Source of the DNA: Escherichia phage PHB10 | DNA length: 57,228 nt | Sequence record: MK524177.1 | Direction: 5' to 3' (one strand) | Part shown: positions 3,996 to 8,513 of the stretch, piece after piece | Layout of the letters: every line of letters begins with the position of its first letter | How positions within the stretch are numbered: the stretch's first letter is position 1 | The notes under the pieces: model-generated | The model's database searches: none | What the model saw: only the letters and a program-made list of their open reading frames with translations | Told to the model about the DNA's origin: nothing | Program-made: the position numbers and the translations under genes

Positions 3996-4312
3996 TCCGC
4001 CCTCTCTTTATGCATAATTTTTAGCGCAGCACTTTCCATCACCCGGATGTCCGAAAGCGCGGTTGCCTCGTCGTCGACGTTGTGCAAACGCATCACCCAG
4101 GGCAAAACGTTATAGTCGAGCCCGGACGCGCCCCCCATTCCCGTTCGCCATTGCGTACTGACAGTCTGAAACACCAGGAATGAAGTCCATACATCTGGCC
4201 AGACGTCGATGTATTGATCGTCGTAATCATCCGGCGTAAGCCCGTATGGTGCCAGGTCTGCCGCTGTGGGTTCAGGCGTATAGAACGCAGAGGCAACCGC
4301 TATCAGTTTTTT
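3992..4312 (-). CDS. GT-type -1 frameshift extension of the tail assembly chaperone
   Basis: Slippery AAAAAAC (minus strand, 4312..4306) just before the G stop; the -1 frame stays open to 3992 and its stop overlaps the tape measure start. Confidence 0.65.
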
Positions 4313-4614
4313 TCGCGCTGCCCCATCAGCTCGCGGTAGTAGGTTTCCGGGATGGCCTTCATCGCCGCCGGATAGTTTTCCAGCAGCACCGACAGGTTTT
4401 CCGCGTTGAATGCATCCGGAAGTGCCCAGCCAGCAATGATTTCCATCAGAAAATCAGTGGCGGTTTTACCTTCGAGTTTTTCGAGGTCAGCCAGTTCTTT
4501 AAGTGGCTTGTGGTTGAACGTGAACGTCAACACGCCATCCTCATCGCCAGCTCGGGGGATCGAGACATTGGCCTTGAATGTAGGTTTTGGCTGAAGGGAG
4601 AATTTGGTCGCCAT
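4303..4614 (-). CDS. tail assembly chaperone (G-like)
   Basis: 103 aa ORF directly upstream of the tape measure gene; ends at a slippery heptamer. Confidence 0.75.
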   Translation of the reverse strand: MATKFSLQPKPTFKANVSIPRAGDEDGVLTFTFNHKPLKELADLEKLEGKTATDFLMEIIAGWALPDAFNAENLSVLLENYPAAMKAIPETYYRELMGQREKN

Positions 4615-6760: not shown

Positions 6761-7275
6761 TACGCGCGCTCCGCGAAAGTATTGATTGCATATCCACGCC
6801 CACCAGCCAGGTTGCCGAGAATAGCCATTACCGCCGGGTAAGTTGGCGTAAACACCTCACCGTCGGCAACCGCATAAGTCATGGTTACGGCGCCTTCGAC
6901 ACGTTCGGTTTTAACCGCGGCCTCACGAACGCTTGAAAGCAAATCGCCATCAATCGCCTCGATAGCCAGCATGCATTGTGCGGTGATAACCTGCCGCGGC
7001 ACCTGGTCGGGTGGGAAGTCGTGTCCATCCAGAATGACATTTGCGCGTGGCCAGGCCAGCGGCTGTCGAGGGTCTGCTTTGGAACCTACCCAATCAAGAC
7101 CTTCTAGGTAGTCCATCGCCTTAATCAGTAATGGTGTGAGCTTTTCAGGCACCTCAACTCCTCTCAGCGTGGCAAATGACGCCAGTTCATCTTCGCTGGC
7201 GTAACTGTTAACGTCAGCGGCGGTGATATCAGTATTAATCATCTGAGCATCCGTTGAATGGGGCTTACGCCCCAT
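6760..7275 (-). CDS. head-tail connector protein (gp6-like), putative
   Basis: 171 aa, immediately downstream of the capsid gene. Confidence 0.45.
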   Translation of the reverse strand: MGRKPHSTDAQMINTDITAADVNSYASEDELASFATLRGVEVPEKLTPLLIKAMDYLEGLDWVGSKADPRQPLAWPRANVILDGHDFPPDQVPRQVITAQCMLAIEAIDGDLLSSVREAAVKTERVEGAVTMTYAVADGEVFTPTYPAVMAILGNLAGGRGYAINTFAERA

Positions 7276-7278
7276 CGG

Positions 7279-7566
7279 TTAGCCTGCAGCAGGTGCGGTG
7301 AAGGTGATTTCCTCACTCGATTTAGCAATACCATCAACAGTACCAGTGACCGTGAAAGTACCAGCCGTATCGGAGGTAAGCTTGACCGTCGCCCCACCAG
7401 CAGAGCCGGTTTGAGAACTGGCAGTGCTGAGCGTGCCGCCGCTTGAATTCCAGGCAACGGTTTTGCCGGAAACACCTGCGCCGTTTAGCATGTACTTCAG
7501 GGAAATGGTGACCGCATCGGTGCTGTCAGCGGTTGCGGAGGTTTTATCCGCTGACAGCGTTACTCC
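7279..7566 (-). CDS. Ig-like (Big_2-type) domain, probable C-terminal extension of the major capsid protein by -1 frameshift
   Basis: ORF GKTVAWNSSGGTLSTASSQTGSAGGATVKLTSDTAGTFTVTGTVDG is Ig-like; no SD before its ATG 7491; its frame is the -1 frame of the capsid gene and is open from 7584 across a G-run (7565-7569) beside the capsid stop. Confidence 0.45.
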   Translation of the reverse strand, partial: GVTLSADKTSATADSTDAVTISLKYMLNGAGVSGKTVAWNSSGGTLSTASSQTGSAGGATVKLTSDTAGTFTVTGTVDGIAKSSEEITFTAPAAG

Positions 7567-8513
7567 CCCGCTGCGGATCCCAGCTTAATCAGCACGCCAG
7601 CCGTAGATTTGTTACTGGTGAAGTGCTTCTTCCAGTTACCTGCAGTGCCGATTTTGGTCAGGTCCGGGTTGTCACCTTTGGAGGTATCCCAGCTGTAACC
7701 CAGCAGGTCGACATTCACCACGCCTTCAGCACGGTACCCGATCGCCAGGTTTTCCTGATCGTTGATGTCGTAGGAACGGAACCCCGGAGCCTGAGACTCA
7801 GTAACAGTCACCGCCCCGGTCACCAGCCCGAGAATCGCATCCGCGTCCATGGTGTCGGTCACCAGCACAGGCTTACCCAGCGTGCCCGGCTGCCCGCCGT
7901 AAACCACCACACCCGCTTCTTCATAGATTTTGTTGGCAATCGCCTCATCCACGATGTCGAAGTAAGTGGCGGAGTGCATAACGAAGAGCACGACACGGTT
8001 GAACTTATCGCCGTACTTACGCAGGCCGCGCGTCAGGGTCTTCTTGCCGTCTGTTTCGATATCGGCGGTGACCACCATATCCGCGTTGGCGCCAATAGCA
8101 GCCGTCAGCGCCTTCAGGCCGTATTTCACGTAGCCTTCCAGCGTCGCGTCAGCCACATCAGTGCCGATCACTTCGGAGAACTCGTCAACCGAGCGGCCGC
8201 GGCGTTTGAACGCTTCTTCAGTAGTTTCGTATGGACCGTATTTCCACGGCGCTTTGACGGATACGGCTTCACCGGCGCCAATCTTCTTACCCGTCACCTT
8301 TTCGGTGGAGTTAACGTCACGCGATTCTATTGAGCCGCCCACCTTGTAGAAGGCACGCTTGCGGAAGTCGCCTTCAATCAGTTCGTTATCCAGCAGGATC
8401 GCGCCGTTGGAGGACGCGTTGAAAATTGCCAGGTTGTCCTGGCGACGCTCGAGGAAAGCGGTCTGCGCCAGATCGTCATAAATGATCAGGTCACTATTAA
8501 CAGTGGTAGACAT
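7560..8513 (-). CDS. major capsid protein, putative
   Basis: 317 aa ORF between the scaffold and connector genes. Confidence 0.6.
   Translation of the reverse strand: MSTTVNSDLIIYDDLAQTAFLERRQDNLAIFNASSNGAILLDNELIEGDFRKRAFYKVGGSIESRDVNSTEKVTGKKIGAGEAVSVKAPWKYGPYETTEEAFKRRGRSVDEFSEVIGTDVADATLEGYVKYGLKALTAAIGANADMVVTADIETDGKKTLTRGLRKYGDKFNRVVLFVMHSATYFDIVDEAIANKIYEEAGVVVYGGQPGTLGKPVLVTDTMDADAILGLVTGAVTVTESQAPGFRSYDINDQENLAIGYRAEGVVNVDLLGYSWDTSKGDNPDLTKIGTAGNWKKHFTSNKSTAGVLIKLGSAAGE

Follow-up and report, generated by a model that had tools for sequence, protein, structure and literature searches.

In the 57,228-nt sequence of Escherichia phage PHB10 (record MK524177.1; this whole stretch is called the window, and its numbering is used throughout), the gene of the major capsid protein overlaps at its 3′ end with an open reading frame (ORF) for an immunoglobulin (Ig)-like domain. 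All genes in this part of the window lie on the minus strand. Judging from the sequence, a minority capsid-Ig form is very probably produced by programmed −1 ribosomal frameshifting just before the capsid stop codon. The initial annotation of this DNA had proposed that a −1 frameshift at a G-run gives some capsid subunits an Ig-like domain, and all of the computational tests described below support this idea.

The 317-amino-acid (aa) ORF 8513..7560 encodes an SPP1 Gp13-like, HK97-fold major capsid protein, a virion structural protein. It matched Pfam PF20036 (E 9e-105), its Foldseek matches were solved capsid proteins of phage SH-Ab15497 and SPP1, and an identical protein in the protein collection is named 'MULTISPECIES: major capsid protein [Enterobacter]'. 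The 3′ end of the gene reads ...AAG CUG GGA UCC GCA GCG GGG GAG UAA, with the stop codon at 7562-7560. The codons of the Ig ORF start at 7563+3k and those of the capsid gene at 7562+3k; thus, the Ig ORF is in the −1 frame. A TAA at 7587-7585 closes the upstream side of this frame, which is open from 7584 (translated as AGIRSGGVTLSADKTSATADSTDAVTISLKYMLNG...TFTAPAAG) to the stop codon at 7281-7279 and overlaps with the last 7 capsid codons. The frame relation, the opening at 7584, and the 7-codon overlap had been given in the initial annotation, and these coordinates were confirmed. The same annotation had expected a C-terminal Ig-like extension of about 95 aa. This agrees with the translation from the junction, G/E-VTLSADKTSATADSTDAVTISLKYMLNG...TFTAPAAG, which is about 94-95 aa in length and consists of one Big_1 (intimin-type) Ig-like domain.

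The Ig domain begins at the junction and not at ATG 7491, the sole canonical start codon in the open −1 frame, which defines a 70-aa ORF in the mechanical ORF list. The −1 product read from the junction covers positions 2-93 of the 93 positions of Pfam Big_1 (PF02369; E 1e-14, 54.8 bits with a cut-off of 34.9), while the product read from the ATG covers positions 29-93 only. Among solved structures, the first strands of intimin D0/D1 align with LSADKTSATADSTDAVTISLKYM, from residue 4 after the junction (6tpl, E 8e-15). A conceptual 411-aa fusion was modelled by AlphaFold2 with a 30-sequence alignment (A2) as input, and the pLDDT confidence score is 83-96 across the Ig part. In this model, the first Ig strand (residues 317-322) directly follows the last capsid strand (residues 306-311), and Met342, which corresponds to ATG 7491, is placed at the end of β-strand B. 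The modelled Ig part superposes on intimin 1f00 with a root-mean-square deviation of 1.1 Å over 94 columns. According to the model, a protein begun at ATG 7491 would be short of two or three strands of the fold. The alignment-based model was used instead of a single-sequence AlphaFold2 prediction of the C-terminal 119 aa, which was uninformative (pLDDT 44).

Is this arrangement found in other phages and prophages? A megablast search of the locus against the phage collection gave no match, and the relatives needed a protein-level search. IMG/VR was scanned with the conceptual junction region (336 related stretches; 80 loci fetched) and with a Providencia-type junction as a second query (332 related stretches; 80 loci fetched). 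Further loci were taken from annotated Klebsiella prophages, an E. coli chromosome, and Cronobacter, Salmonella, Providencia, and Hafnia contigs. In IMG/VR and the other collections, the capsid gene with a −1 Ig ORF recurs in about 160 related loci. Among these relatives, 72 unique full-length capsid-plus-Ig sequences with the −1 arrangement, diverging by up to about 25%, were compared, and none of the 72 has a stop codon or an indel in the Ig frame. Because of this recurrence and the 72 intact Ig frames, the arrangement is far beyond chance. The ratio of nonsynonymous to synonymous polymorphism (pN/pS) of the Ig region is 0.144 when read in the Ig frame, versus 3.6 and 1.9 for the remaining frames; the ratio for the capsid gene is 0.059. 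The low ratio in the Ig frame and the lack of stops and indels suggest that the extension is translated and under purifying selection.

Some relatives have the Ig module in other forms. Arsenophonus-type relatives (L062, L075, and protein P0004) continue from the capsid into a homologous Big_1 domain without a change of frame (...AGVMIKLKHEASLNLSVDKTTATANNSDAVTISL...), and the stop codon, the G-run, and the hairpin described below are all missing from their junction. Capsids of the same family from Yersinia, Ewingella, and Sodalis (P0015, P0022, and P0027) have a Big_2 domain in frame. A Hafnia locus (L089, ENA ERZ28812133, 2150-2700) has the slip site and a covarying hairpin leading to a 178-aa extension with Big_1 followed by Big_2. 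Both the Ig domain and the slip site are absent from Pseudomonas relatives. A Salmonella contig (L087, Logan SRR28147525, 2130-2330) keeps GCG GGG GAG TAA, while its −1 frame lacks an Ig domain and encodes only a tail of some 50 aa that is rich in Pro, Ala, and Lys; this tail may be a replaced or decayed extension. A 408-aa protein (P0090) considered as an in-frame variant proved to be an irrelevant scaffold-capsid deletion chimera.

The zero-frame stop codon directly adjoins a putative slippery heptamer in all loci (UAA, except for UAG in one G_GGA_AAG locus). The seven bases before this stop were counted in the loci fetched, where a few contigs had been fetched twice. G_GGG_GAG, the heptamer of the window, was found in 91 loci, and G_GGA_AAG was found in 63 loci of the Providencia type. 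G_GGG_AAG (2 loci) and G_GGA_GAG (1 locus) are intermediates between these two main heptamers, and G_GAG_GAG (L072) and G_GUG_GAG (L078) occur in 1 locus each. In 40 of the 42 unique junctions, re-pairing of tRNA-Gly in the peptidyl (P) site, from GGR to GGG on G_GGR, is preserved. In the window, the G_GGG tetramer lets the P-site tRNA re-pair perfectly. Re-pairing in the aminoacyl (A) site is perfect only in the G_GGA_AAG clade, and the GAG-to-GGA re-pairing in the window is near-cognate. Since the Providencia-type sister clade has the canonical heptamer G_GGA_AAG at the homologous position, the slip site of the window is pinned to 7569-7563. Of the −1 heptamers measured in E. coli, G_GGA_AAG ranks within the top three in efficiency (PMC4066793), and it is also the heptamer of lambda G-T and of the Kuravirus capsid genes (PMC4066793, PMC9965538). 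The initial annotation had named two stretches that might allow slippage. The G-run is conserved, but the upstream CUG GGA (7583-7578) is not, its GGA being GAA in many relatives (CTG GAA); thus, only the G-run site remains a candidate. One locus (L014, IMGVR_UViG_2547132416_000001, around 1620-1670) has a 24-nt tandem duplication of the slip site and stop codon (…GGGATCCGCAGCGGGGGAGTAAC repeated), giving two consecutive G_GGG_GAG UAA signals with the −1 frame open through both.

A predicted stimulatory RNA hairpin, which went unnoticed in the initial annotation, begins 4 nt (UAAC) 3′ of the heptamer. It has a perfect 11-bp stem composed of a 5′ arm (7558-7548, GCUGUCAGCGG) and a 3′ arm (7532-7522, CCGCUGACAGC), which enclose a 15-nt loop (7547-7533, AUAAAACCUCCGCAA). 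The predicted folding energy is −21.2 kcal/mol (z −6.84), and none of 200 shuffled sequences was equally stable. In the 42 unique junctions (alignment A1), on which the base-pair counts are based, standard pairs occupy 97% of the cells, and the ten inner pairs are never unpaired. Compensatory double changes were found in 5 of the 11 stem pairs, for example from G-C to A-U and from A-U to G-C in Cronobacter (L086; arms AUUGUCAGCAG/CUGCUGACAAU) and Hafnia (L089; arms CUAUCGGCGG/CCGCCGAUGG). Pairing and covariation beat all 500 shuffles and every slid-register control. The one-sided changes in the inner pairs are all C to U opposite G on the mRNA (sense) strand, which fits an RNA helix in the mRNA and not a DNA palindrome. 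Third-position entropy at 7569-7525 is 0.125 bits (median, 0.72), and none of the other windows among the 397 along the 1.27-kb capsid-plus-Ig sequence (72 unique sequences) has a value as low. With GGG in the P site, the stem starts at about +11 from the first P-site base, which is the mRNA entrance and helicase region of the ribosome.

Other roles and folds of this region were considered. The hairpin is not an intrinsic terminator, since no U-run follows the stem (ACCGAUGCGG); the terminator scan gave 0 sites. No promoter for the Ig ORF was found either. An H-type pseudoknot between CCGCA (7538-7534) in the loop and UGCGG (7516-7512) was rejected because a 5-nt connecting loop would have to span the 11-bp stem and because the Providencia clade does not retain the GCGG downstream. 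The outer helix CCGCA.CGG / CCG.UGCGG of the 121-nt minimum free energy fold is broken in relatives by GTG upstream and CAGAC downstream. The loop CCUCC as an anti-Shine-Dalgarno mimic pairing with the G-run was also rejected, as it is CGUCC, CAUCC, or CCACC in other clades, and an apparent double change in L078 does not restore pairing. No Rfam covariance model matched the region (noise at or below 17 bits, with gathering thresholds of 50-71 bits). In the Enterobacter clade, the four-fold degenerate sites within the loop AUAAAACCUCCGCAA hardly vary, and all 42 unique junctions share its 5′ half, GAUAAAAC. The search for a conserved partner with which the loop (7533-7547) might pair was negative, and its CCGC could alternatively pair with GCGG of the stem as a small hairpin.

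The following mechanism is proposed. Most ribosomes would read ...GCG GGG GAG and terminate at UAA 7562-7560 to make the 317-aa capsid protein. In a minority of ribosomes, with tRNA-Gly on GGG 7568-7566 in the P site and the hairpin 7558-7522 at the mRNA entrance, the tRNA would slip one base back onto GGG 7569-7567, and translation would continue as GGA GUA ACG CUG... to the stop codon at 7281-7279. In the product of about 411 aa, a linker of 5 residues would connect the capsid fold with a single Big_1 Ig-like domain of the intimin type. It may co-assemble with the 317-aa subunit, and a set fraction of the subunits would then show the Ig-like domain on the capsid surface. If only the P-site tRNA slips, or if a G is inserted in the mRNA, the junction would be ...SAAG-GVTLS (peptide LGSAAGGVTLSADK), while tandem slippage of both tRNAs would give ...SAAGE-VTLS (peptide LGSAAGEVTLSADK). 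I infer the occurrence of slippage from these sequence features. The domain may be exposed on the surface, and by analogy with other phage Ig-like domains its role is probably weak adhesion. Capsid-displayed intimin-type Ig domains are candidate weak adhesins that may bind mucus or the surface of cells.

Some observations weigh against slippage at this site. G_GGG_GAG is not a canonical X_XXY_YYZ heptamer, and the re-pairing of tRNA-Glu from GAG to GGA puts a G·U pair at the middle position. With 4-5 nt, the spacer is among the shortest of those known. Two of the 42 unique junctions, L072 (G_GAG_GAG) and L078 (G_GUG_GAG), break P-site re-pairing while their Ig frame is intact. Both are from isolate prophages in IMG/VR, and each substitution changes the encoded residue in the capsid frame and is silent in the −1 frame. 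These loci may be down-mutants of the signal or may hint that slippage starts elsewhere. Finally, E. coli reporters with a G_GG.G tetramer gave a signal that Sharma et al. credited to Shine-Dalgarno-like initiation, not to slippage (PMC4066793). By such independent or coupled initiation, GGGGGAG would serve as the Shine-Dalgarno sequence for a near-cognate start codon in the −1 frame, and the Ig-like domain would be made as a free protein (about 93-99 aa) with no covalent link to the capsid protein. The start might be CUG 7557-7555, 5 nt downstream of GGGGGAG, or the ATC chosen by the Prokaryotic Genome Annotation Pipeline (PGAP) in an E. coli homologue, and the ribosomes are possibly those terminating at the UAA. 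GGGGGAG is a strong Shine-Dalgarno-like motif with ideal spacing from the CUG, the position of the CUG is UUG in the Cronobacter relative, and a GTG is present four codons later in a few relatives, one of which has it annotated as the start in GenBank. However, the candidate start is CUA in Hafnia, where the entire open −1 segment is devoid of start-like codons, and the GTG is GCG in the window and most relatives. The CUG itself sits within the −21 kcal/mol hairpin that is maintained by selection. As the in-frame relatives show, the domain is functional when joined covalently to the capsid C-terminus, and it is exactly in these relatives that the hairpin vanishes; moreover, the sister clade has the canonical G_GGA_AAG heptamer. 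Initiation of a free Ig-like protein is therefore improbable.

Slippage might also occur during transcription. If RNA polymerase added one G in the G5 run, a subset of the mRNAs would have the two frames fused, and the product would be the same as that of P-site slippage. The homopolymer lies at the junction as this explanation demands, but bacterial RNA polymerase slips at A or T runs of about 8-9 or more, and five G residues are far below such run lengths. The sister clade has the same architecture with GGGAAAG, which contains no long homopolymer, and a conserved downstream RNA hairpin would be unneeded. This explanation is very improbable. It is scarcely conceivable that no extension is made at all, the Ig ORF being a silent relic of a broken in-frame fusion or a product of a homopolymer sequencing error. 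In-frame fusions do exist in related lineages, and G-runs are prone to indel errors. Nevertheless, the same G5 or GGGAAAG junction is present in about 150 independent contigs from isolates and metagenomes, and this, together with the selection on the Ig frame described above, excludes a relic or an error; the junction is also the most conserved stretch at synonymous sites. Programmed −1 frameshifting at the G-run thus remains the preferred explanation.

The Ig ORF seems to have no start codon of its own. The initial annotation had noted that no credible ribosome-binding site precedes ATG 7491, and indeed no GGAG-like or other Shine-Dalgarno-like motif was found in the preceding 20 nt (GGTCACCATTTCCCTGAAGTAC). 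Most relatives have a Thr codon (ACG or ACC) at this position. Between the −1-frame stop and the Ig domain, the relatives share no canonical start codon; codon 7551-7549, for example, is GCG in the window and most relatives and GTG in a few. Thus, the conserved canonical start and ribosome-binding site of a free-standing small Ig-like gene were not found among the relatives. Neither promoter-like nor terminator-like sites were found in 7150-7750. Public records conflict with one another. In an E. coli chromosome (L085, NZ_CP015912.1, 4024-4323), PGAP starts the Ig ORF at an ATC codon, overlapping the capsid gene. A GenBank phage record (L001, MK448234.1, 2463-2735) starts it at GTG under the name 'cobalamin biosynthesis protein', and sister records of MK448234.1 leave it unannotated. 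Versions of 70, 75, 99, and 109 aa are present in the protein collection. Such conflicting starts and lengths are typical of an ORF without its own start. The public annotations examined apparently miss the capsid-Ig frameshift, and literature searches found no description of a frameshift signal in this capsid family. The locus is mis-annotated across prophages of Enterobacter, Klebsiella, E. coli, Cronobacter, Hafnia, and Providencia-type hosts, where the Ig ORF is given an ATG, GTG, or ATC start and is misnamed or uncalled; it would be better annotated as a capsid isoform made by ribosomal slippage.

The initial annotation had referred to a known phenomenon in other phages, and this is correct. 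It is known that −1 frameshifting adds Ig-like domains to phage coat proteins in T3, A2, A118/A500, and Kuravirus (PMC5009743, PMC9965538). In-frame and out-of-frame Ig modules interchange on structural proteins, as reviewed by Atkins et al. with T3, A2, A118/A500, and PSA as examples (PMC5009743). The features of the class described by Fraser et al. in 2006 (summarised in PMC5009743), namely a structural protein, an appended Ig-like module, and in-frame homologues, are all found here. Coliphages T3 and T7 also make two capsid products (10A/10B), the minor and longer one by −1 slippage near the 3′ end of the gene. The extension of T3 gene 10 is Ig-like (PMC5009743, PMC9965538), and the T3/T7 frameshift rate is cited as about 10% (PMC9965538). 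In contrast to T3/T7, whose capsid family, Ig family, and slip sequence all differ from those in the window, the stop codon here adjoins the heptamer and is followed by a conserved, covarying 11-bp hairpin. Kuravirus-like phages (YF01 and the phiEco32 group) have GGGAAAG, the same as the Providencia-type heptamer, near the capsid stop and an Ig-like extension (PMC9965538). However, the capsids of these podoviruses belong to an unrelated lineage, their extensions are far longer (about 150-540 aa), and their stop codon lies several codons past the heptamer; the slip site of the window is G_GGG_GAG and not GGGAAAG. Lactobacillus phage A2 and Listeria phages A118/A500 are temperate siphoviruses with a −1 shift at the end of a head gene; their longer head protein is incorporated into capsids, and the A2 extension is Ig-like (PMC5009743). 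These are likened to the window by description; their hosts are Gram-positive, and their slip sites and proteins differ. The lambda-type G/GT tail assembly chaperones share the logic of a G_GGA_AAG-type heptamer and a fixed ratio of two products, but those products are assembly chaperones and not virion decorations. As in the product proposed here, a C-terminal Ig-like domain follows the HK97 fold in the in-frame capsid-Ig proteins, namely phi29 gp8 (BIG2) and the prophage capsids of Arsenophonus, Yersinia, Ewingella, and Sodalis. Unlike the window, they have no recoding and no hairpin, and the domain is on every subunit.

The phenomenon is thus well known, and what is apparently new is a stop-adjacent G_GGR_RAG heptamer with a covarying hairpin that adds Big_1 to a Gp13-like capsid. 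The slip-site variants, including the two that break the site, the compensated hairpins, and the in-frame controls without a hairpin constitute a natural experimental series, which is suited to the study of non-canonical, stop-adjacent heptamers in Enterobacterales. One might speculate, with the odds clearly against it, that these sites form a separate class of stop-adjacent −1 signals in which only the P-site tRNA-Gly on G_GGR must re-pair and the A-site codon is free to vary. The series G_GGA_AAG, G_GGG_AAG, G_GGG_GAG, and G_GGA_GAG, found at a single homologous position, could in evolution serve as a dial of Ig display, while the adjoining zero-frame stop and the hairpin 4-5 nt away would set the efficiency. 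If this were true, A-site variants would tune the number of Ig domains per capsid across hundreds of Enterobacterales prophages.

The features are listed in Table 1. A GC-rich hairpin follows the stop codon of the Ig ORF directly and overlaps with an ATG at 7275; RefSeq starts the next gene of the E. coli homologue further downstream. In Klebsiella (L001), its counterpart is followed by UUUCUUUU and resembles an intrinsic terminator, while a simple terminator scan does not call the hairpin in the window. The hairpin and the Klebsiella UUUCUUUU suggest that the expression unit ends after the Ig ORF, not at the capsid stop; the hairpin is probably the end of a capsid-Ig expression unit.

Table 1. 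Features of the capsid-Ig locus and a neighbouring gene in the window
Feature	Coordinates	Strand	Basis
Major capsid protein gene, 317 aa, Gp13-like / HK97 fold, zero frame	7560..8513	-	ORF list, Pfam, Foldseek
−1 frame 5′ of the slip site, open, probably untranslated; bounded by TAA 7587-7585	7570..7584	-	sequence, translation
Putative slippery site G_GGG_GAG; P-site GGG 7568-7566 after G7569, A-site GAG 7565-7563	7563..7569	-	sequence, conservation
Predicted stimulatory RNA hairpin	7522..7558	-	folding, covariation, synonymous-site conservation
Putative transframe (−1) extension, GGA GTA ACG CTG ... GGC TAA	7279..7566	-	translation, Pfam, structure model, pN/pS
Internal Met codon taken by gene finders as start of 70-aa ORF; not the real start	7489..7491	-	no Shine-Dalgarno motif, unconserved, model
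GC-rich 8-bp hairpin with GUAA tetraloop, directly after the Ig stop	7257..7276	-	fold
Tail assembly chaperone gene	4614..4303	-	3′ end CGC GAA AAA AAC TGA

The tail assembly chaperone gene has the heptamer A_AAA_AAC (4312-4306) directly before its stop codon (A_AAA_AAC plus UGA, 4312-4303). Its −1 frame is open for 115 codons to 3992 and overlaps with the start of the tape-measure gene. By its sequence, this is a predicted classic G/GT-type −1 frameshift site with the same heptamer-then-stop layout as the capsid site.

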